From NCBI GenBank assembly GCA_015492435.1, contig WGFB01000051.1:15100-79099 (forward strand): a stretch of DNA of 64,000 bases, read 5' to 3'. A model generated the notes under the pieces. It was not told the origin of the DNA. It saw only the letters and a program-made list of their open reading frames with translations, and searched no databases. Made by a program: the position numbers and the translations under genes. This DNA comes from Gammaproteobacteria bacterium (GTDB lineage Bacteria > Pseudomonadota > Gammaproteobacteria > SZUA-140). This document shows positions 8,374-55,314 of the stretch, in pieces (the first letter of the stretch is position 1; each line of letters begins with the position of its first letter).

Positions 8374-9034
8374 GTTCCCGCCCGGCCTCCCGTGCCGTGA
8401 GGCGCCGGCGGATGGTGGCGAAGACCTCGTCGAACATGGCCTCCGTGAGGCGCCGGGTCTGGGTGTTGTAGCGGCTGCAGTGGTAGGAATCCACCAGCAG
8501 GCGGTCCTGGTCGAGGTGGTGTTCCCGGCCGTGGGCGAAGGGATGGTCCTTGAGGCGCAGGCCCAGGGCGCGCAGCACGGCCTGGTGGGCGATGGTCCCC
8601 AGGGCGAGGATCATGGCGCCCTCTCGCAGCCCCGCCAGTTCTTCCCTGAGAAAGCCGTTGCAGGTCCGGATCTCCTCCCCCGTGGGCTTGTTCTGGGGCG
8701 GCAGGCACTTCACCGCATTGGTGATGCGGCAGTCCCGCAGGCGCAGGCCGTCGTGGATGGACTCGGAGACCGCCCGGGTGCTGAAGCCGTGGCGATGAAG
8801 GGTTTCGTAGAGCAGGATGCCGGCAAAGTCACCCGTGAAGGGACGCCCCGTGGCGTTGGCGCCGTGCATGCCCGGCGCGAGGCCGACGATGAGCAGGCCG
8901 GGATCGCTGGCGCCGAAAGGGGCCACGGGCCGGGCATGGTAATCCGGATAATCCCGCCGGACCGCGGACAGGAATGCGCTCAGGCGCGGGCAGCGCCGGC
9001 AGTCCGCATCGAAAATCTTTCCGTTCATTGCCAT
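8366..9034 (-). CDS. Uracil-DNA glycosylase, family 4 (Fe-S type)
   Basis: 222 aa. GLAPGMHGANATGRPFTGDFAGILL motif plus four conserved Cys (CRRC...C...C). Overlaps the uvrC start by 8 nt. Confidence 0.85.
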   Translation of the reverse strand: MAMNGKIFDADCRRCPRLSAFLSAVRRDYPDYHARPVAPFGASDPGLLIVGLAPGMHGANATGRPFTGDFAGILLYETLHRHGFSTRAVSESIHDGLRLRDCRITNAVKCLPPQNKPTGEEIRTCNGFLREELAGLREGAMILALGTIAHQAVLRALGLRLKDHPFAHGREHHLDQDRLLVDSYHCSRYNTQTRRLTEAMFDEVFATIRRRLTAREAGREHV

Positions 9035-9106
9035 TGCGCCGCCCTGGCCATGCCACCTCCCTTGTGCCGCGGTCCCGCGCGAGGAAATGCGGGGCCCGCG
9101 CCAGGA

Positions 9107-9640
9107 TCACCCGATGGGCATGACCACTGTGGCCTGGGGTCCCTCGTCGCCTTCTTCCTCGAAAAAATGCACCGGCATCTGCTCCGCCAGCTTGTCGAAC
9201 TCGTTGTTCTTGACACTGTTGCGGTGAAAATAGATCTCCCGCCCGTCAAAGGTGCTGATGAAGCCATAATTCTCCTCGGGGAAGATGCGGCTGATGGTGC
9301 CCGCCGGCGTCTCCCCGTGAGACTTGACTTCGCCCCGCTGGCGCCGGGTATGGTCCTGAAGCTGGCGCCTGGCCGCCTCGAAGGAGTCCCGGATGGCCAC
9401 ATAGAGATCCTCGTTGGGCTCGCGCTTGACGATGATTTCCCGGCCGGGCACGGTGATATCGATGAGTACATTATAGAGAACCCCCTGCTGACTGTGCCGG
9501 TGCGGGCACTCGACCACCACGCGGCAACTGGTGATCCTGTCATGAAACTGCTCGAGCTTGGCGGCCTTTTCCCTGATGGTGTTTTCCGCCGCCTCCGAGA
9601 GGGACATGTTGCGGGTGGTTATCTGTAATGGCAATTGCAT
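9107..9640 (-). CDS. hpf: Ribosome hibernation promoting factor (HPF/YfiA family) with a C-terminal cold-shock domain (HPF::CSD fusion)
   Basis: The start is taken at ATG 9640 (MQLPLQITTRNMSLSEAAENTIREKAAKLEQFHDRI...), which has the SD AAGGAG upstream. The N-terminal ~95 aa match HPF/YfiA. The C-terminal region GTISRIFPEENYGFISTFDGREIYFHRNSVKNNEFDKLAEQMPVHFFEEEGDEGPQATVV aligns position-by-position with the CspA encoded at 29607 ([61 protein letters not shown]). Confidence 0.8.
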   Translation of the reverse strand: MQLPLQITTRNMSLSEAAENTIREKAAKLEQFHDRITSCRVVVECPHRHSQQGVLYNVLIDITVPGREIIVKREPNEDLYVAIRDSFEAARRQLQDHTRRQRGEVKSHGETPAGTISRIFPEENYGFISTFDGREIYFHRNSVKNNEFDKLAEQMPVHFFEEEGDEGPQATVVMPIG

Positions 9641-9760
9641 AGACGGCTCCTTATGAAATCGGAATGTTGTGCGCGAAACATAAAGTAAATCCTGAAGTAT
9701 GGCGCCGGCCTTCAGGAACTGGGCGCGCCAACCCAATATAGCCTGGATTACACCATAAAA

Positions 9761-11977: not shown

Positions 11978-12112
11978 GGGATTCGATTGCGCGCCGGCGC
12001 GCTTCTGTGCCGGCCGTTACCAGGAAATAGTGCCTGGGGAAGGAAAATACAACCTGAAACCGTGGTTCAGGTGCAAGTCGGCCGGCCGGGAGGCCCCGGA
12101 TCCGTCCCCCGC

Positions 12113-12568
12113 CTACCGGCGCCCCTGCCTCATGGCATGAATGACCTGGTCTTCCAGCTCGATGCGGTCGGCAAGGCATTCACCGAGCAGGGAAAGATCG
12201 GTTTTCAGGCCAACGAGGTCGGGCTCCTGGCCATCGAAGTCGTATTTCTCATTGAAGTCGAGGATCTTCTGCGTCGTCGCCACGATGCTGGGATAAACCT
12301 TGTCCGCCACCGCAACCACCTCGTGGCGCCGTTCCTTCTTCTCGTCGATGTAACGGTAAAGCCTGAAATGGGCGTCTGCGGTGTAATCGATGAGCGCCTG
12401 GCAGAAGTTCTCCAGCATCTCGATCACTTCCCGTGAGTCTCCATTCGCGTGATTGGCGGCAAGATCGCCGTACAGGGACAGCACGTTGCTCCTGACGTTG
12501 ACCAGTTCCTGTATCAGGTTCAACGATGCCGAACGGCGCTCCTGAAAAACGTTTTCTGTTCCAGACAT
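12113..12568 (-). CDS. rsd: Rsd/AlgQ-family regulator of sigma D (anti-sigma-70)
   Basis: 151 aa; FCQALIDYTADAHFRLYRYI matches the Rsd/AlgQ signature (E. coli Rsd has FCQSLVDYLSAGHFSIYERI). Confidence 0.8.
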   Translation of the reverse strand: MSGTENVFQERRSASLNLIQELVNVRSNVLSLYGDLAANHANGDSREVIEMLENFCQALIDYTADAHFRLYRYIDEKKERRHEVVAVADKVYPSIVATTQKILDFNEKYDFDGQEPDLVGLKTDLSLLGECLADRIELEDQVIHAMRQGRR

Positions 12569-23141: not shown

Positions 23142-23855
23142 TCAGGGCAGATATAGGGAAAAGCGCGCTCCGCCCTGCCCATCCCGGTTGGCGAGACGGA
23201 TATGACCCGCGCGGCCATCGCGGCGGTGCATGGCGGCGATGGCGCGGGAGAAATACAAACCGAGGCCGGTGTTGCCACTGGCGAAACTGACACCCGCTCC
23301 AGCGGCGGCCGCGTTTTCCAGCATGTGCCCGGGATAGCCCGGGCCGTCGTCCTGCACGGTGATCACCAGGCAGCCATCTTCACATCGCGCCTCGAGCGTC
23401 AGTTGCCGGCGCGCATGGCGGATGGCATTGTTGATGGCATTGCCCAGGACGCCCGTGACCAGTTCCCGGTCGAATACCCAGACGAGATCCTCCCCGCACA
23501 GCAGCTCTCCTTCGATATCCCTGCTCTCCAGAAGCGGGGTTTCCTGCAACAGCAGTTCCAACAGTACGTCGTGGACATTCCACTCGGCCAGGTTCGCGCT
23601 GAGCATGGCCTTGTCCATGCGATAGAAGCTGAGAAGCTGGATCATCTTGCCGTTGAGGCGCTTTGCCTCGACCTGCAACTGTCCAAGGCGCTGGTGGCCA
23701 CCCGCCTCCATATCGGGAATGCATGCCTCCAGGGAATCGAGGACGATGGTCAGGGAGTTCTTCATGTCATGGAGGGTCGAGGCGATGAGACTGCCGAAGT
23801 CAGCGCGGCCTTCGTCCGCACCTTTTTCCCCAGGCATGGATTTCTCAGGCAGCAT
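23142..23855 (-). CDS. Soluble histidine kinase (HisKA + HATPase_c, no sensor or TM domain)
   Basis: H-box STLHDMKNSL; N-box GNAINNAIRHA; G-boxes DDGPGYP and GNTGLGLYFSR. 237 aa; overlaps the upstream response-regulator gene by 11 nt. Confidence 0.85.
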   Translation of the reverse strand: MLPEKSMPGEKGADEGRADFGSLIASTLHDMKNSLTIVLDSLEACIPDMEAGGHQRLGQLQVEAKRLNGKMIQLLSFYRMDKAMLSANLAEWNVHDVLLELLLQETPLLESRDIEGELLCGEDLVWVFDRELVTGVLGNAINNAIRHARRQLTLEARCEDGCLVITVQDDGPGYPGHMLENAAAAGAGVSFASGNTGLGLYFSRAIAAMHRRDGRAGHIRLANRDGQGGARFSLYLP

Positions 23856-25482
23856 GGCTCTTGGTCAGGCGGCTGAGCCGTTCCTGCAGCCTGAACAGTT
23901 CGGCCTGGGGAGTACAACGCGCCTTGACTGTCTCCAGGCACTTGCGCGCCAGGCGCAGGTAATCCTCTCGCCCGCCATGTTGTTCCATGTGCATGATGAG
24001 CACCATGGCCGTGTTGGAATTGATGGTTTTATTGTCCGGCATGTCTTCGAGGGCCTCCTGAAAGAGGCTGATGGCTTCGCCAAGGCGCCCCTCCTGGGCA
24101 TAGCGGACACCCTGGTTATTGAGTTTCACCACCTTCCCCCGGCTGTCGGAAATGAGCCGCTTGCCTTCTTCCTCCATACCGACTTGGGCCAGGCTGTGTT
24201 GTATGCGCTCAAGCAGTGTCTCGTCCTCGTGGTGATTCTTGACCAGATCACTGACCAGCTCCGTGCCCTTGTCCTTGTCACCGTTTGCAATGAAGGCCTG
24301 GGCCATTTCCAGGATCAGCTCCGCCGGGAGCTGCCCGCCCATCCTGTCGAATTGCCCGGCGGCCCTGGCAAAGGCCTTGCGCGCTTCTTCTTCCCGCCCC
24401 ATCTCCAAGAGTACGCCATGCTCACACAAAGTGGCCTGGAAATCGGCCTGCTCATCGCGCGGGAAATCCTTGCGCAACTTGCCGAGTACCCTGAGGGCGT
24501 CCTTTTTGGAGCCGGTGTGCACCATGGCTCGGGCCTGCTTGGTGTAATTGGCGGGCGATTTGAAAACTGAATGGGCGCCGATCTGAACCGCTTTCTTGAA
24601 GGCGCGCTCGGCAATCTCATAGCGGCCCTTCTCCAGGGCCAGATCACCCAGCGCCATCTGTCTCTGGATGGCCTTGGGTGACAGCCTGGTGGCCGTGAGC
24701 AGGACCTCCACCGCGGCATCATCCTCTTCAAGACGCACCAGGCATCGGGCCAGCCAGTCATGGGCCTCCATATTATTGGCATTCTGGCCGATGATATCCG
24801 CGAAAATCTCACGCGCGGTCTCATATCGTCCCGTCCGATAGGCTATCCTGCCCAGGCCCATGCGCGCCCAGGGCACGTCCCTGCCGTCAAGTACCGCTTC
24901 ATAAACGGCCTGCGCCTCAGAGAATTGTTCCATCTTCTCATACAGTTCCGCCTTACACTTCAAGAACTCGGAAACATTGTGCGGTTTCTCGTGGATTTTC
25001 CCGTCGCACAACTGGATGGCCTGGATAAGTCTTCCCTGCCTGATGGCCCGCTCGATCTCCTCGAAGTCGCTTTTCCTGAGCATGATCTTCTCCAGGCGCT
25101 GGCGCAGGACGTGCTTGTTGAAGGGCTTTGACATATAGTCGTCCGGCTGATATTCCACCGCGCCCATGACCATGTGCAGAGTGTTCTCTGCCGTGATCAT
25201 CATGAACACCGTCGAATATCTCAACAGGTTCCTGTGCCGGGCCTCCTCCAGAATCTGCTGACCGTCCTTTTCCTCTCCCAGGTTATAATCGCAGAGGATG
25301 ACGTCGTAGTCCTTCTTCGCCATGGCAGTGAGTGCGTCCTTGCCATTGCCTGCACCGTCGACCTCGCTCACGCCATAAGACTCCACCATGTTTCTGAGCA
25401 TGCTGCGCATGTCGGCAAAGTCATCGATGATGAGGAACCGCTTGCCTGAGAAGTCCAGCAGTGGTTTTCTGGGTATTGTCAT
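23845..25482 (-). CDS. Response regulator: CheY-like receiver fused to a TPR-repeat domain (no DNA-binding domain)
   Basis: Receiver FLIIDDFADMR...DVILCDYNLG...SKPF; about 400 aa of TPR-like repeats follow. Confidence 0.85.
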   Translation of the reverse strand: MTIPRKPLLDFSGKRFLIIDDFADMRSMLRNMVESYGVSEVDGAGNGKDALTAMAKKDYDVILCDYNLGEEKDGQQILEEARHRNLLRYSTVFMMITAENTLHMVMGAVEYQPDDYMSKPFNKHVLRQRLEKIMLRKSDFEEIERAIRQGRLIQAIQLCDGKIHEKPHNVSEFLKCKAELYEKMEQFSEAQAVYEAVLDGRDVPWARMGLGRIAYRTGRYETAREIFADIIGQNANNMEAHDWLARCLVRLEEDDAAVEVLLTATRLSPKAIQRQMALGDLALEKGRYEIAERAFKKAVQIGAHSVFKSPANYTKQARAMVHTGSKKDALRVLGKLRKDFPRDEQADFQATLCEHGVLLEMGREEEARKAFARAAGQFDRMGGQLPAELILEMAQAFIANGDKDKGTELVSDLVKNHHEDETLLERIQHSLAQVGMEEEGKRLISDSRGKVVKLNNQGVRYAQEGRLGEAISLFQEALEDMPDNKTINSNTAMVLIMHMEQHGGREDYLRLARKCLETVKARCTPQAELFRLQERLSRLTKSHAA

Positions 25483-39026: not shown

Positions 39027-39218
39027 TCAGCTATGAGCCTTGTTGGAACTGATGCCCAGAATCCGGTACAAGGGGCACCAGCCGATGAGGGCCGTCACCA
39101 GGGGGATAACTCCGATCCAGCCCCAGGGAGTCTGCGGACCGACGAATACAATGGCGATGAGCGCCAGGCCCACGGCGATTCTCAGGGCTCTGTCGATGGA
39201 TCCTACATTGGCTTGCAT
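39027..39218 (-). CDS. DUF2892 (YgaP-like) small membrane protein
   Basis: MQANVGSIDRALRIAVGLALIAIVFVGPQTPWGWIGVIPLVTALIGWCPLYRILG matches the DUF2892 pattern. The start is taken at ATG 39218; the track start 39257 adds 13 aa. Confidence 0.7.
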   Translation of the reverse strand: MQANVGSIDRALRIAVGLALIAIVFVGPQTPWGWIGVIPLVTALIGWCPLYRILGISSNKAHS

Positions 39219-39285
39219 GGTGAACCTCCAGTGTTGTAAGTTATTCTGTCGACACATACACTAGAGCGGACGCGTGGCCCCGTTC

Positions 39286-39300
39286 TGTGACTTAGTCACA
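39286..39300. promoter_or_regulatory. CRP/FNR-class palindrome TGTGACT-T-AGTCACA overlapping the stop of the Crp/Fnr-family gene, upstream of the DUF2892 gene
   Basis: Perfect 7-1-7 inverted repeat with TGTGA/TCACA half-sites (N5 spacing; canonical CRP is N6). Confidence 0.4.
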
Positions 39301-39966
39301 CCCAAGCTCTTCCAGTGGCCGGCGCTCGAGAATCTCGATACGGCGCCGTTGCATGGCGATCCAGCCCTTGCGCTCGAAATCCTTGAGCAGGCGGCTGACG
39401 ACCTCGCGGGCCGACCCCAGTTCCACGGCGATTTCCTGGTGTGTGGCACGCACCACCTCGCCATGCTTGAGCAGGTACTGGGCCAGGCGGCCGTCCATGC
39501 GGCGGAAGGCCACTTCTTCGATAAGCAGCATGAGATCTACCAGGCGCCTGCCCAACGTGTTGAACACATAGGCGCGCACCGGCTCATGGGCCAGTGCCTC
39601 CTGAAAAACGCGCATGGGCACCAGCGCGGCCTGCAATGCCTCCTCGGCAATGCCCTGGGCGGGATAGCGGGCCTGTCCCAGCAGGCAGGAGGTGGTGAGA
39701 ATGCAGGTTTCCCCTTCACGCACCCGGTACAGGACGATTTCATTGCCATTGTGGTCCAGATACTGGACGCGCACGCACCCGGACAGGACGATGACAAAAT
39801 GGCTGCAGGGATCCCCGGCCCGGAAAAGCTCCGTTCCCGCGGGTGCATCCATGATCCGGGCATGACGCCCGATGAGGCGCCAGCCAGGATCGCTCACGCG
39901 GGCCTCGTCCGGCAGGGCATTCAGCCACCGGCAGGACTCATCCGGGTTCGATGTTGTATCGTTCAT
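39292..39966 (-). CDS. Crp/Fnr-family transcriptional regulator (cNMP-binding domain + HTH)
   Basis: cNMP-binding beta-roll (ELFRAGDPCSHFVIVLSGCVRV...REGETCIL), FRRMDGRLAQYLL, HTH THQEIAVELGSAREVVSRLLKDFERKGWI. No FNR-type N-terminal Cys cluster. Confidence 0.85.
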   Translation of the reverse strand: MNDTTSNPDESCRWLNALPDEARVSDPGWRLIGRHARIMDAPAGTELFRAGDPCSHFVIVLSGCVRVQYLDHNGNEIVLYRVREGETCILTTSCLLGQARYPAQGIAEEALQAALVPMRVFQEALAHEPVRAYVFNTLGRRLVDLMLLIEEVAFRRMDGRLAQYLLKHGEVVRATHQEIAVELGSAREVVSRLLKDFERKGWIAMQRRRIEILERRPLEELGCD

Positions 39967-39969
39967 CTT

Positions 39970-41430
39970 TCACTCACTGCATGGGCCGAGTGTAAAATAG
40001 AAGGTGGCGCCCTTGTCCGGCGCCGCCTCGGCCCATACCCGGCCGCCATGGCGGTGAACGATGCGCTGCACCGTCGCCAGGCCGATCCCCGTGCCGGGAA
40101 ACTCTTCCGCCTTGTGGAGCCTCTGGAAAGGGCCGAACAGATTTACCGCGTATTTCATATTGAAACCCGCGCCGTTGTCCCGCACATAATATACTTTCCC
40201 GCCTTCCCTTTCAGTGGCGCCGAACTCGATGCGTGCATGGGGTTTTCTGGAGGTATATTTCCAGGCATTTCCCAGCAGGTTGTCGAGCAGGGTCATGAGA
40301 AGGTTGTGGTCGCCCGTGCATGTCAGTCCGTCTGCAATGGCCACTTCCACCTTGCGCCCGGGATCGCCCGCCTTCAATTGATTGATGGTGTTGTGCGCCA
40401 GCGAAGACAGGTCGACCTTGCCGATCACCATTTCGTCACGGCTGATGCGCGACAATACCAGCAATCCGTCTATCAGGTCCGACATGCGGTGGCTGGCGGC
40501 CCGCACCCGCCGCAGATAGTCCTTGCCGGTTTCATCCAGAACTTCAGAATAATCCTCCATCATTGCGTGACTGAAACCGTCGATGGCGCGCAGCGGGGCG
40601 CGCAGGTCATGGGACACCGAGTAACTGAAGGCCGTCAGCTCCTTGTTGGTCGCCTCCAGCTCGCGGGTGCGCTCGGCCACGATCGCCTCCAGATTGTCGC
40701 GGGCTTCCAGCAACTCGCGATTCTGTTTCTCGATGGTCTCCAGCATGGCGTTCAAGGCGCGGCTGAGGCGGCCGATCTCGTCATTGCCGAAGTCAGGCAC
40801 GCGCAGGGAATAATCTCCGCGCTTCTCGACGGTAGTGGCGATACTGGCCAGCTTGATGAGGGGAACGGAGATCAGGCGCTGCATGGCCCGGGACATCCAA
40901 TAGGCGATCAGGGCGCCCACCAGCATGAAACCCAGGATGGCGTAGATCAGGCTGTAGACCCGCTGATTGATCTGCTGCAGCCCGGAGCGTATGTAGATAT
41001 ATCCCGCGAGTTCCCTGCCCAGCTCGATGGGCTCGGTCACGTGAAGGTATTCGCTCTCGAACAGGCGTGACCTGGCAAGCCTCTCAGGGGCGGCCGGACA
41101 GCGTTCCTCCCGTGGCCTGCCGGTTGCCTGATACGCGGCGAACAGCCCCCCCTGCCTGTCATAGATGCACGCCATCACCACGTTAGGGGACTCCTGGAGG
41201 GCCCAGAGATTCTCCCTGGCCAGCGCCTTGTCGTCGAAGATCAGGGCCGCGCTGCTGCGGTTGCCGATCAGCCGCGCCTGGGTGGTTATTTCGCGCCCCA
41301 GGTTTTCTTTCGCCCGGTAGATGTCATACAGAATAATGGTAATACCCGCCAGAAGCAGCATGGTCAGGGTCACATACATGATGACCATGACCAGCTTGCG
41401 CGAGACGGGCAGGTTTCTGAATGGACTCAT
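39970..41430 (-). CDS. Membrane sensor histidine kinase (TM - periplasmic domain - TM - HAMP - HisKA - HATPase_c)
   Basis: The start is taken at ATG 41430 (MSPFRNLPVSRKLVMVIMYV), which overlaps the upstream gene's stop as ATGA. The track's 88-aa N-terminal extension is high-GC read-through. H-box SHDLRAPLRAI; N-box LLGNAWKYT; G-boxes DNGAGF and GTGIGLATV. Confidence 0.9.
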   Translation of the reverse strand: MSPFRNLPVSRKLVMVIMYVTLTMLLLAGITIILYDIYRAKENLGREITTQARLIGNRSSAALIFDDKALARENLWALQESPNVVMACIYDRQGGLFAAYQATGRPREERCPAAPERLARSRLFESEYLHVTEPIELGRELAGYIYIRSGLQQINQRVYSLIYAILGFMLVGALIAYWMSRAMQRLISVPLIKLASIATTVEKRGDYSLRVPDFGNDEIGRLSRALNAMLETIEKQNRELLEARDNLEAIVAERTRELEATNKELTAFSYSVSHDLRAPLRAIDGFSHAMMEDYSEVLDETGKDYLRRVRAASHRMSDLIDGLLVLSRISRDEMVIGKVDLSSLAHNTINQLKAGDPGRKVEVAIADGLTCTGDHNLLMTLLDNLLGNAWKYTSRKPHARIEFGATEREGGKVYYVRDNGAGFNMKYAVNLFGPFQRLHKAEEFPGTGIGLATVQRIVHRHGGRVWAEAAPDKGATFYFTLGPCSE

Positions 41431-42002
41431 CGCGCCGCCTCCCGGGCATGAACCGTGATCACGCGCAGGCTGACTTCTATCAGCTTGGCGCTGATATGCA
41501 GGCGCACGCGCTGCGCAGCCGGCAGATTGATCTCCAGCCGCACACGGTCGCCCCTGACCACGAAGCCGATCATCCCCCCCCTGTCGATGAAACCCGGCAT
41601 GTCGCTGATGGTCAGCACTGGCAGGTCCGCGACCGCGACCAGCACTTTTTGCAGCTCGCCTTCCTGGCTTGGCGTGATATAGAGCAGTTCGCAATGGCGC
41701 AACTGAGACGGTGAGGCGGGATGCGAGATTTCAATGGAGAACGCCCCGTGGCCGTGACCCGCAAGCCTTTCAAGGTAGTGAGTGACCCTGTCGTCGCCGA
41801 ATATGCACAGGATCAGATGCTTTCTGTCCCGCGCGGTCTCCGCCGCCTCATCGGGCCAGGAAACGAAGTGGCTGAACTGGTGCACATAGGCAGCCTTGAT
41901 CTTCGGCACCCTGTCGCTGCCATCGGCCTGGGACAGAACCGGGAAAGACAGCAGAATGACGGGAATGACAATATGGATGATACAGTGTCTGATCCCTGGC
42001 AT
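41427..42002 (-). CDS. YfiR-family (DUF4154) periplasmic regulatory protein
   Basis: Signal peptide MPGIRHCIIHIVIPVILLSFPVLSQA, then KAAYVHQFSHFVSWP (compare YfiR KAAFLYNFAKFTEWP) and a C-terminal region typical of DUF4154. Start at ATG 42002; the track start 42218 is a TTG. Confidence 0.7.
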   Translation of the reverse strand: MPGIRHCIIHIVIPVILLSFPVLSQADGSDRVPKIKAAYVHQFSHFVSWPDEAAETARDRKHLILCIFGDDRVTHYLERLAGHGHGAFSIEISHPASPSQLRHCELLYITPSQEGELQKVLVAVADLPVLTISDMPGFIDRGGMIGFVVRGDRVRLEINLPAAQRVRLHISAKLIEVSLRVITVHAREAAR

Positions 42003-42102
42003 CTTGATACGCAATAAATCCCTGTATGAAAATGATTCCATCGGCGTGGCTGTGTTCCGCGGGGGCGTGAATCCCGCACCCGGAATACCGTTCATGCACC
42101 GG

Positions 42103-44109
42103 TCAGAACAGATAGCGCGCCCCCACCTTGGCATTGCGCTCCTGCCCCCCGGGCACCAGGCGCTCGCTGAGTTCGGCCATATTGGGGTGCAAAATCTCCT
42201 CATCAAGCAGGTTTTCAACAGTGGCGAAGAGCTGGAGGCGCTCCCAGCGGTATTGATAATCCAGGTTCACCAGCCACAGGCTTTTCGCACTGGCCCGCGC
42301 GCCGATGTGGCGCAGGGAGAAACCGGCCGTGCTGCGCCGGGCGAAATGCCGGTATGCGCCCAGGTTGAAGGTCCACCTGGGCGAGAAAATGCGCGATGTA
42401 TCACGCACGCTGTAGGTATCGCCACCCCGGTAATAGGCCAGGTTGGAGTAGAGTTTCGTCCGCGGGCCTGGCGTGTACTGCAGGTCCAGCTCCACTCCCT
42501 CACGGCTGAATGTTTCGGCGTTGAAGAAGGACTTGATGCCGTTCACCACCTCGTTCATGATGAAATCGTCCGCGTGCATTTTCCATATATTGGCGACGAA
42601 GAGCAGATCCCCCCTGGCATAGGTATAGGCCAGGTCCAGGGAGGCCACCTTTTCCGGCTTCAGATTCGTGTTCCCGGTTACGAAGGGGGGGATGTCGGCC
42701 TTGAGCTGGGTAAAACTGGGAGCGTTGAAACCCACGGAATAGAGCAGCTTGAGGGATTGCCTGTCATCGACCTGGTAGATGGCGCTGAGGCGGGGGACGG
42801 CGTCGCTGCCCGTGATGCTGTTGTCCGTGTAACGCCCGCCAAGGAGGAAGCGCCATTGCGCCCCGGGACGGAAGTCCACCTCCCCGTACAGTGAGCTCTC
42901 GGACAGATTGAAGCTTTCGTAGACGCTCCCCGTGGCCCCGCCCGAGTGGCCATCGAACACCTCGTAGTCCTCGGAGGAACGGCGCTCGTGCTCAAGGCCC
43001 AGCAGCAGCCGCACCGGCTTGCGTGGCCTGTAACCGGCCGCGAGCCCGCTGCGCCAGCGGTAGTTCTTGCGCCCGTTGTCGGGGAAGCGGAACCCGCCCC
43101 GGCTGCCATTGTTGAAAACCACCGAGCCGGGGCCGTTGTCGCTGAAAAAATTGTCGATTTCGAAGCGCGGATAGAAATTGTTGTAATCGGTGTACAGGCT
43201 GAGCGAGGTCCGTTCACCCTTCCAGTCGTTCCTGAGCCCCAGCAGATACCCCTTGTAGGTGAGTTCATTGAAGTTCTGCACCTGGCGCGGCTCGGCAATC
43301 CCCGTATACAGCGTTTCGAAAACATGGGCCTGCGCCTTGAAGTCCTTGTAGCGGTAGTTCATCAGGGCCGAACTGGTTTCCCGCTTTTTGTCGATATCGC
43401 CCTGCGCGAAGCTCGCATTGCCATCGTTGAAGGCCGGATAGGTCGCCCGGTAGCCGTCATCGCGTTGCAGCTCAAGGGCCGCGTTGAGCCGTCCCCAGGA
43501 GCGGGCGCCACTGTCCAGGTAGGCGCCGCCGTTGACATAGCGGTTCTCCCCCGCTCTCACAACCGCGGAATTCTCTCTGTCCTTGCGCGTCACGACCTTG
43601 ATGACGCCGGCGGTGGCGTTGGTGCCGTAGTATACGGCCCCGGGGCCCCGGATGACCTCGATGTGATCGATCGCCTCGATGGGAATGCCCAGGATGGGCA
43701 CATCCGAGTGAGAAGGCATGAAATAAGGCGTGTCGTCCAGCAGGAAAAGAACTTTCTGGTTGAAACCCTCGTAGATGCCGCGCATGGAGACGAACGGCTG
43801 GCCGAAAAGATGATCCTGGACCGTGATACCCGGAATGAAAGCCAGCATGTCCTGCAGGGTCCTCAGGCCGAGGCTGGCCATCTTCCTCGCCTCGTAGCGC
43901 GAGATGATGGCGGGTGTTTCAACAATGGACTCGGGTTCGAGCGAGGAAACCGTGACCTTGAGGGCCGCGAGTTCCTCCAGGGGCAGGGTCAGCAGGGCTT
44001 CAAAATCGGCAAGGTCCCTCGCCTTCTGGTTCGCGCGCGCCTGGGAAAAGCCCGACACGAAGCAGAAAACGAGCAGCGTGCAGATGATTTGCCTGGTAAC
44101 CGTCAACAT
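42103..44109 (-). CDS. TonB-dependent outer-membrane receptor
   Basis: Signal peptide MLTVTRQIICTLLVFCFVSGFSQA; plug domain (IEVIRGPGAVYYGTNATAGVIKVVTRK); 22-strand barrel region; C-terminal ...KVGARYLF. Confidence 0.9.
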   Translation of the reverse strand: MLTVTRQIICTLLVFCFVSGFSQARANQKARDLADFEALLTLPLEELAALKVTVSSLEPESIVETPAIISRYEARKMASLGLRTLQDMLAFIPGITVQDHLFGQPFVSMRGIYEGFNQKVLFLLDDTPYFMPSHSDVPILGIPIEAIDHIEVIRGPGAVYYGTNATAGVIKVVTRKDRENSAVVRAGENRYVNGGAYLDSGARSWGRLNAALELQRDDGYRATYPAFNDGNASFAQGDIDKKRETSSALMNYRYKDFKAQAHVFETLYTGIAEPRQVQNFNELTYKGYLLGLRNDWKGERTSLSLYTDYNNFYPRFEIDNFFSDNGPGSVVFNNGSRGGFRFPDNGRKNYRWRSGLAAGYRPRKPVRLLLGLEHERRSSEDYEVFDGHSGGATGSVYESFNLSESSLYGEVDFRPGAQWRFLLGGRYTDNSITGSDAVPRLSAIYQVDDRQSLKLLYSVGFNAPSFTQLKADIPPFVTGNTNLKPEKVASLDLAYTYARGDLLFVANIWKMHADDFIMNEVVNGIKSFFNAETFSREGVELDLQYTPGPRTKLYSNLAYYRGGDTYSVRDTSRIFSPRWTFNLGAYRHFARRSTAGFSLRHIGARASAKSLWLVNLDYQYRWERLQLFATVENLLDEEILHPNMAELSERLVPGGQERNAKVGARYLF

Positions 44110-44290
44110 GAGAACCTCATCCCGCGCCCTCCCCCGCGGCACAGATGGCATATATTATTGCCGGGTTGATAAAACCTACGCTACTCCCCGGTGAGTGTCA
44201 ATCAGACATCTCCACCCGCCGTCCCGCGGGCCGCGCGCGGCAGGACCCAACTTGCATTTCCGCGGCAACCAGGATCACCGGAATCCGCCA

Positions 44291-45565
44291 TTACCGCCCC
44301 GGCAGCGTGAGGGACAACCCGGGCCAGTAGGTAATGAGCAGCACCGTCGCCAGCAGGATGAAGAAAAACGGCAGCGTGGCGCGGTAGAGCTGCATCACGG
44401 GTTTCTTGAAGCGGTAGCTGGCGATGAACAGGTTCATGCCCACGGGAGGTGTGAAATATCCGATCTGCATGTTGGCGAGAAAGATGATGCCCAGATGCAC
44501 GGGGTCGATGCCATAACCGAGGGCGATGGGCAGCAGCAGGGGAACCATGATCACCAGGGCGGAAAATATGTCCAGCATGGTGCCCAGTATGAGCAGAAAG
44601 ATATTGAGCAGGATGAGAAAGGTCAGGGGGTCGGTAATGCGTTCCTTGATGGCCTCGAACAGGCGCGTGGGCACCTCCGCGTCGATAAGATAATTCGTGG
44701 ACGCCAGGGAAGCCCCCAGAATGATGAGTATGGCGCCCACCAGCACCATGGATTCGCGCATCACCACGGGCAACCGCCTGAGGCTGATCTCGCGGTAGAT
44801 CAGCACCTCGGAAATCAGCACGTAAAGCACCGTGACCGCCGCCGCCTCGGACACCGCGAAATAACCGCTGTAGATCCCGCCCAGCACGACAAATGGCAGG
44901 GGGATCTCCCACTTCGCCTCCAGGAGCGCGTCGCGGGCCTCGCGCCACGAGAACTTTGTCAGCTCCTGCCCCCTGCTCTGCCAGACGCTCCACGAGGAGA
45001 GGGCCACCAGCATGACGATGCCGGGCAGGATGCCGGCCAGGAACATGTCATCCACGGTCACCGGCGTACCCACCGCCAGTTGCTGCACGATGACCGCATA
45101 GAGGATCAGGGGCAGTGAGGGGGCAAACAGCACCCCGAGGCTGCCGGATGTGGTGATCAGGCCCAGATTGAAATTCTCGCGGAAGCCGGCCTGCTGCAGG
45201 GCGGGAAACAACAGGGCGCCAAGTGCCACGATGGTCACGCCCGAGGCGCCTGTGAATGCGGTGAACAGGGCGCAGGCCGTCAGGGCCACGATGGCCAGGC
45301 CACCGGGCATCCAGCCCAGCAGGGCCCGCGTGAGGCGCACCAGGCGCGCGGGGGCCTGGCTCTCGCTCAGCAGGTAGCCGGCGAAGGTAAACAGGGGAAT
45401 GGCCAGCAGGACGGGCATCTCCGCCAGCCGGTAGAATTCCATGGCCACCACCGTGAGTTCGATTTCCGAGGCGTAGAACCCCAATAGTGCCGAGGCGAGA
45501 ATGATGGCGAACAGGGGCGCGCCCATGAGCGCCAGCAGCAGCAGGCCCAGGGTGGCGAGTATCAT
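44291..45565 (-). CDS. dctM: TRAP transporter large permease (DctM family)
   Basis: 424 aa, 12+ TM segments with DctM-family conserved blocks; the dctQ stop overlaps its start as ATGA. Confidence 0.9.
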   Translation of the reverse strand: MILATLGLLLLALMGAPLFAIILASALLGFYASEIELTVVAMEFYRLAEMPVLLAIPLFTFAGYLLSESQAPARLVRLTRALLGWMPGGLAIVALTACALFTAFTGASGVTIVALGALLFPALQQAGFRENFNLGLITTSGSLGVLFAPSLPLILYAVIVQQLAVGTPVTVDDMFLAGILPGIVMLVALSSWSVWQSRGQELTKFSWREARDALLEAKWEIPLPFVVLGGIYSGYFAVSEAAAVTVLYVLISEVLIYREISLRRLPVVMRESMVLVGAILIILGASLASTNYLIDAEVPTRLFEAIKERITDPLTFLILLNIFLLILGTMLDIFSALVIMVPLLLPIALGYGIDPVHLGIIFLANMQIGYFTPPVGMNLFIASYRFKKPVMQLYRATLPFFFILLATVLLITYWPGLSLTLPGR

Positions 45566-46077
45566 CCGGCGCGCCCTTGCAGCACGCGGACCTTACGTCC
45601 CATGGCCACGCAGTAGCGCAAGGCGATGATGGCGAAACCCACCGGCAGGATGGCCTCGATCACCCAGGCGGGCAGTTTGCCGAAGGTCGTGACGCCCGCC
45701 TCGAAATCCAGCTCCACGAAACGGTAGCTGTAATAACTGACGACGGCGCATACCGCCACGGTGAAGAGGTCGGTGACAATATTGGCCAGTGCCTGAACCC
45801 GGGGCGGCATGAAACGCGACAGGATATCGATGGATATATGGTTCTCGTTGCGGCTCGCCACAATGGCGCCCAGCAGACCCACCCACAGCACCATGGCCCG
45901 CAGCAGGGAATCGCCCCACACCAGGCCGAGATCGAAATAATTGCGCAACAGGATCTGCAGGACGGCGATGGCGATCATGACCGTCAGCATGAGCACCAGC
46001 AGGGTGTCCTCCAGCAGGGCCGTGAGGCGCCCTATTCTGGCGGACCAGTGCGCAGGATTACCGTTTTCTGGCGGCAT
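45562..46077 (-). CDS. dctQ: TRAP transporter small permease (DctQ family)
   Basis: 171 aa, 4 TM segments, positioned between dctP and dctM. Confidence 0.8.
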   Translation of the reverse strand: MPPENGNPAHWSARIGRLTALLEDTLLVLMLTVMIAIAVLQILLRNYFDLGLVWGDSLLRAMVLWVGLLGAIVASRNENHISIDILSRFMPPRVQALANIVTDLFTVAVCAVVSYYSYRFVELDFEAGVTTFGKLPAWVIEAILPVGFAIIALRYCVAMGRKVRVLQGRAG

Positions 46078-47053
46078 CCAGGTTGGTCAGCAGCTTGTCC
46101 ACGATGGCCTGGGAGAAATAACCGTTGCCACGGGTTTCGATGAGCCGGTCCCTGATGGCGCTGTCCCAGCGCGCCTTCTCCTCCGCGCTGGGCCGAATGA
46201 ACTCGATCCCCTGTCCGGCCAGGGCATGGCGGGCCTGTTCATTCTCCTGGCGGTTGATTTCGTTGAGGCGCTCGAACACATCGGTCAGCGCGGCCCTGAC
46301 GATCTCCTGGTCGTCCGGCTTGATGCGCTCGAAGGTCTTGCGGTCGATGATGAGAATACCATAGAGGTACATGAGGGGCGTGTCCGTCACGTATTTCACC
46401 CGCGTATGCCATTGCAGGGCGATGGCGCCGATCGGCGAGGCGCCCACGGTGTCGATGAGCCCTGTCTGCAGGGCGGTCAGGACATCGGGCAAGGGGAGCG
46501 AAATGGGCGACACGCCCACCGCCTCGAAGGCCATCTGGCTGATGGCGTCTCCTTCCGGAACCCACACCTTGCGGTCATCGAGATCCGCGATGCCCGAGAT
46601 GGGCTTGTTGGACATCAGGTAGGCGAACCCCGCCTCCGCCAGGCCGAAGCTTACATATCCGCGCTCATAGAGCCCCTGCATGAGGTCACCGTCCATGCGG
46701 GCGCGCACGAAATCCACTTCGTCCGTGTTGCGGAAGGCGAAGGGAAGGCTGTAGATCTGGGAATCCGGGTAGATCTCCCCCAATCCGCCGCCGACCATGG
46801 CGCCGCCGTGCAACTGGCCGACGCGCATCTTGCGCAGCACGTTCTTGTCGTTGCCCATGACGCCGCCGGGATAGAAACGGAGCTTGACCCGGCCCGAGGT
46901 CTGCTGCTTGATATCCGCGGCCGCCTTGCGCAGTTCCTTCATCCATACCGTCCCGTCGGGCGAGATGGTGGCGATCTTCAGGGTCAGGGCCTGGGCCTGC
47001 GCCCCCGCGAGCACTATGGACAACGCCAGCAATAATCTCATCATGCCTCTCAT
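46058..47053 (-). CDS. dctP: TRAP transporter substrate-binding protein (DctP family)
   Basis: 331 aa, signal peptide MRGMMRLLLALSIVLAGAQAQA, DctP-family blocks (LRFYPGGVMGNDKNVLRKMRVGQLHG). Confidence 0.88.
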   Translation of the reverse strand: MRGMMRLLLALSIVLAGAQAQALTLKIATISPDGTVWMKELRKAAADIKQQTSGRVKLRFYPGGVMGNDKNVLRKMRVGQLHGGAMVGGGLGEIYPDSQIYSLPFAFRNTDEVDFVRARMDGDLMQGLYERGYVSFGLAEAGFAYLMSNKPISGIADLDDRKVWVPEGDAISQMAFEAVGVSPISLPLPDVLTALQTGLIDTVGASPIGAIALQWHTRVKYVTDTPLMYLYGILIIDRKTFERIKPDDQEIVRAALTDVFERLNEINRQENEQARHALAGQGIEFIRPSAEEKARWDSAIRDRLIETRGNGYFSQAIVDKLLTNLDAARKR

Positions 47054-47943
47054 TCCTCGAAATATTCCCCGGATTCTTCCAGCAAGATCCGCGCCTGTTT
47101 CTGGGCCACCACATTGGCCAGGGTCAGCCCTTCCTCCTCGGGATCGGCGACCAGCACCTCCTTGAGCAGCCGGTCATGAAGCTCGCGCTCGAACAGCAGG
47201 CGGGCGTAGGTGCGCGCGTATTCCACCTTGGCGATGAGATTTCTGCCCTGGCTCAGCTCGATGGCGTGCTCGAAGTGTTCCCGCCCCACCTCGGGCCGCC
47301 CCCCCAGCGCCGGGGGGAGCTGGGCGTTGATAATGCCCAGGTACACATGAGGCATGCCCCGCTCGAAATCGTCGTCGAGGGCGATGACGCGCTTCAGCAG
47401 GATCTCGACCCGGGGAAGATCGGCCAGATAGCGCCACTCGCCGCTGTTGACCTGTATCCACGAGGCCCAGGCGGTGGCATACGTGTAGAGGAGCTCGGCG
47501 CCCTCCCGGCCCCGCACGCCGTCCACCAGTTCCGCGAAACGTTCGAAGTCGCGGGCCTCCTCCGAGCAGAGCTTGCTCAGTTTGCGGCACACGGCCTGCT
47601 CCGCGTAGCGGTAGGCCTTCCCGGCATGCATGCGCGCATGGGCCTCGTCCGTGGCAAAGACCCCCGCGTAGGCGCTGTAGAGGCGCGAGCCGGCCATCAG
47701 CAGGGTGGCGTCGTGGGGCGTGTTCATGATCATCCCGTCCACCATCAGCAGATAGGCGGGCATGCCCGTCTCCACGATGGCGAGGTCGCTCTGGTTTTGG
47801 ATGCTGTTGGCGATCCCCTGGGTCAGGCCATGGGAGGCGAGACTGGCGCAGCCGCCCACATAGAGCAGCGTGATCAGGAGGAGCAGCTTGTGAATGAGAG
47901 AGGCGTGTTTCAATGAGCGGGTCATGATTGAAAGTCGTCGCAT
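47050..47943 (-). CDS. TatT-family TPR lipoprotein associated with TRAP transporters (TPAT system)
   Basis: 297 aa; lipobox LYVGGC; TPR-like helical repeats; the dctP start overlaps its stop as ATGA. The organisation matches Treponema TatT-TatP(QM). Confidence 0.7.
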   Translation of the reverse strand: MRRLSIMTRSLKHASLIHKLLLLITLLYVGGCASLASHGLTQGIANSIQNQSDLAIVETGMPAYLLMVDGMIMNTPHDATLLMAGSRLYSAYAGVFATDEAHARMHAGKAYRYAEQAVCRKLSKLCSEEARDFERFAELVDGVRGREGAELLYTYATAWASWIQVNSGEWRYLADLPRVEILLKRVIALDDDFERGMPHVYLGIINAQLPPALGGRPEVGREHFEHAIELSQGRNLIAKVEYARTYARLLFERELHDRLLKEVLVADPEEEGLTLANVVAQKQARILLEESGEYFEE

Positions 47944-51728: not shown

Positions 51729-53534
51729 CTAACCGCCGGCCTGGCACGGAGGTTCGCAATTGTCCCAGGCATAGATGGCATGCACGAGATTGCCCTCGTC
51801 ATTATAGGTCACTTCCCGGCACATGGACTGCACCAGGGCGATTCCCCTGCCACTGCTCGTGGTGTTGCCGGCGAGGGACGCCTGCCGGCCCTGATGATCG
51901 AACCCCCGGCCGCTGTCTTCCACCGTGATGTGCAATTCCCCGCCACATCCCTCCGGGAAATGCTCCAGGGCGATGCGGATCCAGCCGTTTTCCAGGGCAT
52001 CCAGTTTCTGCTTTCTCTGCGCGTAATATTCAACGAAGCCTTGGTGATCCCGTTTCAGGGCCGAGTCGAGGCCCAGCACGCCATGCTCCAGGGCATTGGA
52101 GAACAATTCCGCCAGAATGGTGAACAGGCGGTCGCGGTGTTTCTGCATGCCCTGCAGGTCCATCACCAGTTGGGTCAGCAGGGGACGCGGATCGGCTTCC
52201 TTGAGCGTATCGGCATCGAGGCGCATTTCCACTGCCCACTTGGTCGGCAGGCGCATGTTCCCAGAATCGGCGGCCGCCTCGCCGTTGTCCTGTTCCAGCA
52301 ATTCACGGGCGCAGGTGATCTCCACCAGGGTGGTGTCGTCGCTGATGGGGGCGTCCGCGACGAAAGACTCGAAATCCTCCCGGATGGCGTCGAAGCCTTT
52401 TCCTTCCCGGCCCTGCCTCAGGATGCTTTCGGCAAGGCGCCGCGCGCCGTACATCTCCCCCTGGGGGTTGCGCCCCTCCGTGATGCCGTCCGAGCATAGA
52501 TAGAGCCGATCCCCCGGCATGATGTCCACGTGAACCACCGAGGTGTTCAGGGCCTCTCCATCGACGATGCCCAGCGGCAGGGCGCAGGAACTGACGGTCT
52601 CCTTGACCGCCCGGCGCTTGCCGTCCAGCAGCAGCACATCGGGCATGCCGCCATTCCACACGGCAATCTGCTGCCGGTTGACTTCAAAATCAATAATGCT
52701 GGCCGCGCAGAAATTGCCCGTGGGGAGGAGGCGGCGCAGCTTGTTGTTGATCTCGATGAGGATGTCGCCGACCGTGTAGCCCTTGGCCGTCATGGAATAA
52801 AATATCTCCGAGGTGGGCACCGAGCCCACGGCGGCGGACAGCCCGTGCCCGGTCATGTCTCCGATCATGACGCGCATGCCGCCGGCAGGCTTGTGGGCGG
52901 CAAGCAGCAGGTCGCCGTTGAACAGGCCCATGGAGTTTTGCATGTAACGGATGGCGGGGGATTCCAGCGCCTCGGCATGCAGAAATTTCTCGAACAGGTG
53001 GCGGGCCGTCTGCTGCTCGGCCTGCTCCATCTGCTTATGCTCCTCCAGGGCCTGCCTCTGCTGCTCCAGCTTCCAGTACAGGGTGGAGATGCGCAGCATG
53101 GCGCGGATCTTCGCCGATATCAGCTTGAAATTGCAGATGACGCAGGACTTGCTGATGTAATCGTCGCCGCCATCCTCCAGGTAGCGTATCCTGGCGCCGA
53201 CATCCCCATCGGCCGTCATGAGCAGCACGGGCACGTAGCTGCCGGAGAACAGGCGCTTGATCAATCTTGTTGCGTCATGCCCGCCGATGATGGGCATGTC
53301 GTCGTCGACGATCACCAGGTCCGGCTGCTGCCAGTCGCAGGCTTCGATGACCCGGGCGCCGTTGTCCGTCATCCACACCGTGTATCCTTCCTCCGTCAGC
53401 AGCGCCGCCAGCTTGCGGCTGACCAAGGCATCGCTGCTGGCGATCAGTATGGTGTTGACGGCTTCATCGTGGCCATCTTCCCCTGTCTCATGATCCCGCA
53501 GGGTAATTGTTCCAGCCTTGATCATTCTCCACAT
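51729..53534 (-). CDS. Tri-domain partner-switching protein: CheY-like receiver + PP2C/SpoIIE-type Ser phosphatase + C-terminal RsbW-like anti-sigma kinase (HATPase_c) domain
   Basis: Receiver (ILIASSD...LVIVDDDMP...YISKS); PP2C metal-binding GDMTGHGLSAAV and ...CSDGITEG; C-terminal LFTILAELFSNALEHG...HITVEDSGRGF...GRGIALV, which is typical of RsbW/SpoIIAB kinases. 601 aa. Confidence 0.8.
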   Translation of the reverse strand: MWRMIKAGTITLRDHETGEDGHDEAVNTILIASSDALVSRKLAALLTEEGYTVWMTDNGARVIEACDWQQPDLVIVDDDMPIIGGHDATRLIKRLFSGSYVPVLLMTADGDVGARIRYLEDGGDDYISKSCVICNFKLISAKIRAMLRISTLYWKLEQQRQALEEHKQMEQAEQQTARHLFEKFLHAEALESPAIRYMQNSMGLFNGDLLLAAHKPAGGMRVMIGDMTGHGLSAAVGSVPTSEIFYSMTAKGYTVGDILIEINNKLRRLLPTGNFCAASIIDFEVNRQQIAVWNGGMPDVLLLDGKRRAVKETVSSCALPLGIVDGEALNTSVVHVDIMPGDRLYLCSDGITEGRNPQGEMYGARRLAESILRQGREGKGFDAIREDFESFVADAPISDDTTLVEITCARELLEQDNGEAAADSGNMRLPTKWAVEMRLDADTLKEADPRPLLTQLVMDLQGMQKHRDRLFTILAELFSNALEHGVLGLDSALKRDHQGFVEYYAQRKQKLDALENGWIRIALEHFPEGCGGELHITVEDSGRGFDHQGRQASLAGNTTSSGRGIALVQSMCREVTYNDEGNLVHAIYAWDNCEPPCQAGG

Positions 53535-54069: not shown

Positions 54070-55314
54070 TCAAAACAGTTCGACCTCGCCCGCATCCATC
54101 GACTGCTGGGCCACGGGCTTGATTTTCTCCAGGTCCAGACTGTCCCGGATCTGGATCAGGCGGTCTCTGATTTCATTCAGGCGCCGCGCGTTTTCACCGG
54201 TGTCACGGCCGTTGCGGACCGTTTCATCCAATTCGCTGTTGAATACCGAAACGAGCTGCTCGATCCCCTCCACACGCCTGCGGGTATGGTTGATGAGCTG
54301 ACTGATGATGTCCTCGAATTGCAGCGACCTGACGGCCTGGTCCACATCGCTGGAGATCTGCCCCGTCAAGCCGGTGACCTCCTCCAGGCTGTGGGTGATG
54401 CGCTCGTTCATTTTGAGAATGTCGCTCATCATGTCGTCCACCTGCGCCTTGGACTGAATGGCGACGCTCATATCCTTGGAAGCCATCTTGGCCACGATTT
54501 CCTTGACCTCGTCCACATTCTGCCGCGACTGCCCCACCACCTGGGTGATTTGATCGGCGAACTGGTTGGAGTTCTGCGACAGTTTGCGCACCTCGTCCGC
54601 CACCACCGCGAAACCGCGTCCGGCCTCCCCCGCCCTGGCGGCCTCGATGGCGGCATTGAGCGCCAGCAGATTGGTCTGATCGGCGATGACCTTGACATCG
54701 CCCAGCAGTTCCACCACTTCGTCCATCTGTTTCACCAGGTCGTCCACGCGCTGGGTCATGGACATGCTTTCCTTGCTGGTCTCGATGATGTGTGCAATGA
54801 AATATTGCAGAATCTTCTCGGTTTCCTGGGTGAACTGCTTGACGCCCAGGTGCTGCTTCTCCTCACCGGCTTCGTCATCCCCCTCCAGGCTGCTGGACAG
54901 GTTGCTGAGCAGGCCGCTGACCACCCGCATCTGGTTCTGGGTCTTTTCATTGAGCCCGCTGAAACTGGCGTTCAGGCTGATCACCGCATCCCGCAGCAAC
55001 TGGTTGACCTGATCGAGTTCGCCATGTATGGATCCCACGCCCTCGCGCACGCTCTTGTCGATCTCCCCTGTAATGCCGCACAATTGCGCGCCCTCCAGCA
55101 TGACCGCGCCCATGTCCGCCGCGGCCGTCCGCGGCCTGTTCTCCCCTCCGGCGGGCAGGGAGCGGGCGGCTTGCCATGCCGAGAATACCCAGCCCGTTGA
55201 CACCAGGGTCAGCAACACCATCGACAGGGGGGAGGCATCCATGACCGCCAGGGCGGCGAGGCTGCCCAGGGTAAGCGCCGATATATGCCAGTGTTTCCCG
55301 AAAAAGGTTTTCAT
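54070..55314 (-). CDS. Methyl-accepting chemotaxis protein with minimal N-terminal region (two TM segments, no periplasmic sensor)
   Basis: MCP signalling domain (...[39 protein letters not shown]...). Confidence 0.88.

Follow-up and report, generated by a model that had tools for sequence, protein, structure and literature searches.

The DNA analyzed here, which we refer to as the window, is a 64-kb stretch, in whose numbering all coordinates are given, from an uncultured gammaproteobacterium that is seen in metagenome-assembled genomes and in vent-type metagenomes. Between positions 39,292 and 44,151, the window holds four closely packed open reading frames (ORFs), all on the minus strand, that encode a TonB-dependent receptor, a YfiR-like periplasmic protein, a sensor histidine kinase and a Crp/Fnr-family regulator. 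These genes and their domains, first described in an earlier note on this DNA, were all confirmed by the ORFs and by Pfam profile searches. The note had read them as one pathway ending in the Crp-like protein. We find it probable, instead, that two independent modules abut at this place, and only in this lineage. The first is an envelope-signalling cassette of the TonB-dependent receptor, the periplasmic YfiR-like protein and the inner-membrane CHASE8-HAMP kinase, which, as judged from its sequence, is a member of a widespread and already catalogued class. The second is a pair formed by the Crp gene and a YgaP-like gene.

Counted from its first ATG, the receptor gene (42103-44151) encodes 682 amino acids, with Plug and barrel domains in Pfam. 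An in-frame Met15 at 44109, which the earlier note had used as the start, opens a typical signal peptide (MLTVTRQIICTLLVFCFVSGFSQA), and the receptor gene call in locus L003 is 668 amino acids long, matching the Met15 start; we thus take 44109 as the likely true start. Next come the YfiR-like gene (41427-42002; 191 amino acids; DUF4154, Pfam PF13689) and the kinase gene (39970-41430; 486 amino acids; CHASE8, HAMP, HisKA and HATPase_c). The start/stop overlap ATGA that had been reported between these two genes is present at 41427-41430 on the minus strand, as read directly from the sequence: the kinase ATG occupies 41430-41428 and the TGA that ends the YfiR-like gene 41429-41427, and a Shine-Dalgarno motif, GGGAGG, stands 8 nucleotides (nt) upstream of the kinase ATG. 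The overlap suggests translational coupling of the two genes. By itself, such an overlap is unremarkable, as genes in operons are joined more often by 4 nt of start/stop overlap than in any other way.

The junction that follows differs from what had been described. Rather than an overlap of about 3 nt between kinase and Crp gene, we find a 3-nt spacer, AAG (39969-39967), between the kinase stop (39972-39970) and the Crp ATG (39966-39964). The Crp/Fnr-family gene (39292-39966; 224 amino acids; cNMP_binding and HTH_Crp_2) ends within a perfect palindrome, TGTGAC-TAA-GTCACA (39286-39300, assigned to no strand), which overlaps its stop codon, and further downstream lies a YgaP-like_TM (DUF2892) gene (39027-39218, minus strand; 63 amino acids), assigned by a match of Pfam PF11127 to the identical gene in locus L001. 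The promoter and terminator scan performed at chance level, and no terminator or strong promoter was detectable by it in the gap between kinase and Crp gene. Long ORFs that run over these genes on the plus strand (e.g., 39274-41070) were taken as high-GC antisense artefacts, and a plasmid megablast gave no match.

Receptor, YfiR-like protein and sensor kinase

The kinase is built, in order, of a first transmembrane segment (TM1), a periplasmic CHASE8 domain (residues 41-147; 40990-41310), a second transmembrane segment (TM2), HAMP (residues 185-234; 40729-40878), HisKA (residues 266-330, with the phospho-acceptor His274 at 40609-40611) and HATPase_c (residues 373-481; 39988-40314), with all four domains scoring above the Pfam cut-offs, while no receiver or Hpt domain was found in it by Pfam. 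H274, N384, N388, D418, G420, G422, G448 and G450, which fall in nearly invariant columns of the family, are all present, and by this measure the catalytic core (H box, N, G1 and G2) is intact. The protein also passes the NCBIfam model NF053592 (sensor histidine kinase, YfiR-like protein-associated; cut-off 194 bits), which it matches at 202.2 bits over model positions 1-222 of 223. Within CHASE8, Cys88 (41167-41169), part of an 'ACIY' motif, is kept in 63% of 82 relatives and is nearly invariant in the closest ones, and Cys111 (41098-41100), part of a 'CP' motif, is found in 28% of relatives; the two may form a disulfide or a redox element within the sensor.

For the YfiR-like protein, the assignment to DUF4154 made in the earlier note held when put to a profile search, with PF13689 matching at 132 bits (E=2e-38; cut-off 24.9) over profile positions 2-141 of 143. 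The protein has the signal peptide MPGIRHCIIHIVIPVILLSFPVLSQA, shares its length of 191/192 amino acids with its counterparts in L004 and L005, and is matched by the YfiR chains of the PDB at E~1e-4. In the alignment to PDB YfiR, a Cys pair equivalent to Cys71/Cys110, a pair that is redox-sensitive in YfiR (PMC4655355), is present; C66 of the window protein is kept in 70% and C104 in 92% of 66 family members. The second pair of YfiR, Cys145-Cys152, is absent, as the alignment to 4xjy/5y61 places I and G at those sites. In YfiR, this disulfide is needed for folding and is part of the interface with YfiB (PMC4655355). Any contact of the window protein with the outer membrane must thus differ from that between YfiB and YfiR. 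The window protein also fails the model for true YfiR (NF053586; 37.2 bits against a cut-off of 85) and stays narrowly below that for the TOL_0243-family YfiR-like periplasmic protein (NF053591; 115.1 bits against 125), on which the YfiR-like proteins of relatives score 119-149 bits.

In the receptor, Pfam recognizes Plug (65 bits) and TonB_dep_Rec_b-barrel (106 bits), the barrel having 22 strands, and the same search found no N-terminal STN signalling domain of the FecA type. The NCBIfam model for the TOL_0244-family TonB-dependent receptor (NF053590) is matched in the plug region only, at 96.1 bits against a cut-off of 645, and is thus not passed, nor is it by the receptors of L019 and L023 (97 and 162 bits). 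The receptor gene has a TRAP transporter and the YfiR-like gene as its neighbours. The transporter, directly upstream (44291-47943, minus strand), is encoded by a TAtT-DctP-DctQ-DctM operon (a TPR-protein-associated TRAP transporter), and in L028, a DctM gene is also found just upstream of the YfiR-like/kinase pair. An Rfam scan upstream of the receptor gave no riboswitch above threshold. A sub-threshold match to the Mn2+ (yybP-ykoY) riboswitch in the receptor leader (44086-44201, minus strand; 16.7 bits against a gathering cut-off of 45; E=0.16) is most likely due to chance.

The cassette in other genomes

To place the cassette among its relatives, we used the first 247 residues of the kinase as the sensor query in an exhaustive HMMER search, as a word-index homologue search with the sensor domain had returned only two proteins. 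The CHASE8-HAMP sensor module was found in 14,918 cluster representatives at E<=1e-3 and in 373 at E<=1e-30. Loci were sought in one genome per species, with a sensor alignment of 7 sequences, to which an alignment of 29 that was too diverged had been reduced, and were annotated by hidden Markov models (HMMs) built iteratively from the window proteins and reference receivers. This yielded 80 loci, with 73 evaluable for most features and 65 for the receptor, from Gamma-, Beta- and Alphaproteobacteria, Geobacter/Pelobacter, Opitutaceae, Ignavibacteria, Bacteroidota, Riflebacteria, Planctomycetota, Gemmatimonadota and others.

All of the 65 closest sensor relatives carry CHASE8 and HAMP in Pfam, along with HATPase_c in 59, a fused receiver domain (REC) in 25, Hpt in 9 and GGDEF in 2. 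As HATPase_c so far outnumbers GGDEF, a YfiR-like protein before a kinase is the norm for this branch, which has dedicated NCBIfam models. The arrangement is hence no unusual departure from the YfiR-YfiN pairing, as it had seemed from the window alone.

The context counts agree for the first three genes and disagree for the fourth. The YfiR-like gene stands directly upstream of the sensor, on the same strand, in 57/73 loci, and the junction between the two is usually tight, with NTGA overlaps in 23 of 60 cases and a distance of 30 nt or less in 57 of 60 (GTGA in L005 and L012; a spacer of +2 nt in L004). A TonB-dependent receptor lies directly upstream of the YfiR-like gene in 33/65 loci and within 6.5 kb in 41/65. 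The sensor has a receiver fused to it in 26/73 loci and a receiver gene no more than 1 kb downstream in 24/73, so that a receiver is fused or adjacent in 50/73. A Crp-family gene after the kinase, by contrast, was seen in 1/73, namely in L012, a close relative (76% identical). Of the four-gene order, whose conservation the earlier note had proposed to check, the part formed by receptor, YfiR-like protein and kinase is thus widespread, but the Crp gene is not part of it.

What these kinases commonly act upon can be judged from the receivers beside them. Ten downstream regulators that were analyzed with Pfam included REC-GGDEF-EAL proteins (Hahella, Pseudomonadales), REC-HD-GYP proteins (Geobacter, Pelobacter and others), four single REC proteins and one of the OmpR type, and GGDEF/EAL or HD-GYP proteins occur in 39/80 loci. 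The REC-GGDEF-EAL and REC-HD-GYP partners suggest that the usual output of the family is turnover of cyclic di-GMP (c-di-GMP), which would fit a YfiBNR ancestry. The catalytic cores most similar to that of the window (240-304 bits; Hahella, Pseudomonadales, Ketobacter) belong to gammaproteobacterial kinases of 480-520 amino acids, about half of which are followed by a single REC protein and then by a REC-GGDEF-EAL protein. In four Methylomonas loci (L072, L077, L078 and L079, at about 7400-12500), the order is YfiR-like gene, CHASE8-GGDEF-EAL sensor and TonB-dependent receptor, a variant that links the kinase-type cassettes to the direct c-di-GMP output of the YfiN type, with the receptor kept. 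Close homologues of the kinase were also found in ten Pseudomonadales/Cellvibrionales loci (L042, L044, L046, L051, L053, L056, L058, L059, L062 and L074), upstream of which the HMMs used here detected no YfiR-like gene or receptor; the upstream partner is either too diverged to be detected or was lost in that branch.

The window departs from most of its relatives in that the operon contains no receiver domain. A receiver-domain search of the window bore out the earlier observation that a response regulator is missing from the operon, and located receivers only at 51729-53534 (REC-SpoIIE-HATPase_c_2) and at 23845-25482 (REC-TPR). GGDEF, EAL, HD-GYP and PilZ proteins, which were sought in the window as candidate outputs, were not found. 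The same orphan arrangement is seen in the nearest relatives outside the clade by sensor-domain identity (L013, 47%; L019, 39%; L028, 35%), where the operon ends at the kinase and convergent genes follow, these being PilZ and DUF1631 in L013 and EptA in L019 and L028. As these relatives are independent, the orphan kinase appears to be a stable feature of the sub-clade, and this suggests a partner encoded elsewhere. In L013, the PilZ and DUF1631 genes (2114-3946, minus strand) are a c-di-GMP-related neighbour in a locus without a response regulator.

An orphan kinase might also be read as a sign of decay, in that the cassette would be a non-signalling remnant, deprived of its response regulator, that came to adjoin the Crp gene by genome compaction. 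Such a reading would account for the lack of a receiver in the operon or nearby and for the failure of both receptor and YfiR-like protein to reach their NCBIfam equivalog cut-offs. It is, however, hard to reconcile with three intact ORFs, with a kinase that keeps H274 and the residues of the N, G1 and G2 boxes, with relatives that retain the three genes and their tight junctions down to 76% identity, and with an orphan arrangement that L013, L019 and L028 share independently, and we regard decay as very improbable.

The Crp-family regulator and its YgaP-like partner

Both domains of the Crp-family protein score above the Pfam cut-offs (cNMP_binding, 51.6 bits; HTH_Crp_2, 56.4 bits), and its best solved relative is 3dv8 (E=3.5e-25). 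Like CRP, NtcA and 3dv8, it combines a cNMP-binding beta-barrel with a C-terminal Crp-type helix-turn-helix (HTH). Pfam found no receiver domain in it. An N-terminal Cys cluster of the FNR type is absent, with a single Cys in the first 50 residues and 18 bits, against 228, on the NCBIfam Fnr model; in this, and in its consistent pairing with a DUF2892 gene, the protein differs from known Crp/Fnr regulators.

Homologues of the Crp protein are numerous (3,667 at E<=1e-10), and what surrounds the gene changes with distance. At 84% (L004) and 76% (L005) identity of the Crp protein, the synteny of the window is kept from the TRAP transporter through DUF6940. In L007 (64% identical), the upstream gene is rluB, while in L009 (65%), it is an unrelated dCache hybrid kinase, followed by a 129-amino-acid gene on the opposite strand, and at lower identity, an amidase (L010, 52%) or DAHP synthase (L011, 49%) gene is found there. 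In all six of these loci, the gene next after Crp is a YgaP-like_TM (DUF2892) gene of about 63 amino acids. In L009, this dCache-PAS hybrid kinase, a different sensor, takes up the position that the cassette has in the window, between TRAP operon and Crp gene. A metagenome scan contributed 80 further loci, with 42-67% identity to the window Crp. A YgaP-like gene lies no more than 400 nt downstream of Crp in 64 of the 71 that could be evaluated for it; immediately before Crp, neither a CHASE8 sensor nor any other kinase core was found (0/43), and there was no match to the YfiR-like protein or to the receptor at these metagenome loci.

The palindrome at 39286-39300 lies 68 nt upstream of the ATG of the ygaP-like gene and is the only perfect copy in the window; none was found ahead of the receptor operon. 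When up to one mismatch was tolerated, GTGAC-N3-GTCAC occurs between Crp and ygaP in 61 of 66 pairs (37 of them exact), at a median of 82 nt upstream of the ygaP start, as compared to a background rate of 15 matches in 420 kb, and the palindrome is also kept in L004, L005, L007 and L009. Its half-site, GTGAC, resembles the TGTGA of CRP, whereas its length of 15 nt (TGTGA-N5-TCACA) differs from the 16-mer of CRP and the 14-mer of FNR. We consider the palindrome a candidate operator of the Crp-family regulator, with TGTGACTAAGTCACA as the candidate operator DNA. The Crp proteins of the GTGAC-N3-GTCAC pairs make up an uncharacterised Crp subfamily, whose operator the palindrome likely is. The simplest reading is that Crp, palindrome and YgaP-like gene make up a self-contained unit of regulator, operator and target, which would stand beside the cassette only in this clade.

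The earlier note had, instead, proposed that the Crp-like protein is the output of the pathway, reached either by an unusual phosphotransfer or by co-expression as the transcription factor of the pathway. Several features would suit this idea, namely the 3-nt spacer between kinase and Crp with no detectable terminator or strong promoter, an adjacency that is kept in relatives with 76-84% identical Crp, and an operon that has no response regulator of its own. Yet the protein consists of cNMP_binding and HTH domains only and offers no receiver. Receivers accompany 50/73 cassettes, while a Crp gene follows a single, closely related one. Seen from the Crp side, the constant neighbours are the YgaP-like gene (64/71) and the conserved palindrome, a kinase being found upstream in 0/43 loci, and already at 64-65% Crp identity, the upstream position is taken by rluB or by a different kinase on another transcription unit. 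A palindrome of the Crp type is, moreover, missing upstream of the receptor. As the contexts of the cassette (1/73) and of Crp (0/43) do not coincide, we treat Crp as a neighbouring module and not as an output of the kinase, and consider the proposed role in the pathway to have very little chance of being correct. Given the 3-nt spacer, the Crp/YgaP-like unit is, nonetheless, probably co-transcribed with the kinase in this organism; in relatives, kinase and Crp are 11-12 nt apart. A glutathione S-transferase (GST) gene is often found after the Crp/YgaP pair (L007, L008; 36844-37515 in the window), and a rhodanese gene is nearby in L011, which hints at a thiol or sulfur theme for the Crp/DUF2892 pair.

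Proposed signalling route and related systems

By analogy to YfiR and YfiN (PMC4655355), the YfiR-like protein would bind the periplasmic CHASE8 domain of the kinase and set kinase activity. If the analogy to YfiBNR extends further, the receptor would be to the cassette what the YfiB lipoprotein is to YfiBNR at the outer membrane, and would supply the input, which could be an imported ligand or the receptor's own occupancy or energisation state. The kinase would then phosphorylate a receiver protein, which in most related loci is fused to it or encoded directly downstream. In this lineage, the receiver partner would be encoded elsewhere and would most likely control c-di-GMP; a REC-GGDEF-EAL and/or a CheY-like protein is predicted. 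The Crp-like protein would not be a phosphotransfer target of the kinase.

The step from the receptor to the YfiR-like protein can also be viewed differently. The receptor may be a nutrient importer that acts as a regulated target of the pathway or as a supplier of ligand, in which case the YfiR-like protein would be a ligand-binding co-sensor, as in TorT-TorS or LuxP-LuxQ, and would not be sequestered at the outer membrane. This alternative differs from the route proposed above only in that one step, and the present data fit both. We consider it unlikely for two reasons. About half of the loci, in phyla far apart, keep the order of receptor, YfiR-like gene and sensor, which speaks for a closer tie of the receptor to the pathway than that of a casual target, and DUF4154 proteins are not known to have a ligand or a ligand pocket.

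The proposal of an independent signalling cassette that follows YfiBNR in its mechanism has some weaknesses that need to be considered. The receptor and the YfiR-like protein of the window are below the equivalog cut-offs of their NCBIfam models (96 vs 645 and 115 vs 125 bits, respectively), and the YfiR-like protein does not possess the Cys145-Cys152 loop, with which YfiR in part contacts YfiB. Since about 40-50% of related loci have no receptor, the receptor may be an accessory component or a target of regulation instead of an input that the cassette requires. Relatives with 76-84% identity also have a tight junction between kinase and Crp, which makes a lineage-specific transcriptional link possible. 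Finally, no interaction, ligand or phosphotransfer test of any cassette member was found in the literature searched.

Among the known systems close to the locus are YfiBNR (TpbB/DgcN; Pseudomonas aeruginosa, E. coli) and HmsCDE of Yersinia. As in these, a DUF4154 gene stands directly before, and is coupled to, a gene for a CHASE8-HAMP inner-membrane protein, an outer-membrane component is encoded in the operon, the pair equivalent to Cys71/Cys110 is present, and related cassettes are tied to c-di-GMP. In contrast to YfiBNR, the output domain is a histidine kinase (HisKA-HATPase_c) and not the GGDEF of YfiN, and the outer-membrane partner is a TonB-dependent receptor and not the OmpA-like lipoprotein YfiB. 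The Cys145-Cys152 loop is missing from the YfiR-like protein, which also fails the true-YfiR model (37 vs 85 bits), and the genes are arranged as receptor, YfiR-like and sensor, where YfiBNR has yfiR-yfiN-yfiB. The locus may work like an extended YfiBNR system, yet it is not a member of YfiBNR, as it does not pass the true-YfiR model and has no second disulfide, no GGDEF output and no YfiB. With the NCBIfam trio NF053590/NF053591/NF053592, it shares the three-gene architecture and order, as well as a kinase that passes NF053592; it differs in that its receptor and YfiR-like protein are divergent members and in that the fused or adjacent receiver of most members is absent.

Two further kinds of system show a more partial likeness. 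In FecA-FecR-FecI surface signalling, a TonB-dependent receptor is likewise encoded with a signal transducer that faces the periplasm, but the cassette has no STN domain, no anti-sigma factor and no extracytoplasmic-function (ECF) sigma factor, and its route would run through a soluble periplasmic protein to a kinase. Since both the STN domain and the sigma/anti-sigma pair are missing, the cassette does not belong to surface signalling of the FecA type. TorT-TorS and LuxP-LuxQ have in common with it a soluble periplasmic protein that presumably binds the periplasmic domain of the membrane kinase encoded beside it, but here the protein has the DUF4154 fold instead of that of a classical periplasmic binding protein, and the kinase is not a hybrid.

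The window locus is, then, one more copy of a cassette that has already been named, and the idea that its kinase talks to Crp is unsupported. The class itself deserves attention, as it spans many phyla and couples a receptor, a YfiR-like protein and a kinase that usually feeds c-di-GMP enzymes. It has been named by the NCBIfam curators but is apparently unstudied experimentally, since no experimental study of the receptor/YfiR-like/kinase cassette was found in the literature searched. Understanding the class would broaden the YfiBNR paradigm and might bring to light a new signalling route from the outer membrane to the cytoplasm. We would tentatively go as far as to picture a second, FecA-independent form of TonB-dependent trans-envelope signalling, in which receptor occupancy or energisation would act through the YfiR-like protein and the kinase on what are mostly c-di-GMP enzymes, and in which loss of the adjacent regulator and fusion to the Crp/YgaP unit could have rewired expression in this lineage; we would call this view possible but doubtful. 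More speculatively still, the Crp-like protein might act downstream of the cassette by sensing a nucleotide second messenger, much as c-di-GMP is sensed by Clp and Bcam1349. The Crp-family/DUF2892 pair with its conserved GTGAC-N3-GTCAC offers a testable set of regulator, operator and target, and is perhaps of more immediate use.

As to the two receivers located in the window, the REC-SpoIIE(PP2C)-HATPase_c_2 protein (51729-53534, minus strand) is an orphan that lies about 7.6 kb upstream of the receptor and is adjoined by a soluble MCP-signal-domain protein (54070-55314, minus strand). Being one of only two receivers in the window, it is a formal candidate for the partner of the kinase. The REC-TPR protein (545 amino acids) overlaps a small, 237-amino-acid protein with HATPase_c only (23142-25482 for both, minus strand), and the two look like a separate and unusual signalling pair.

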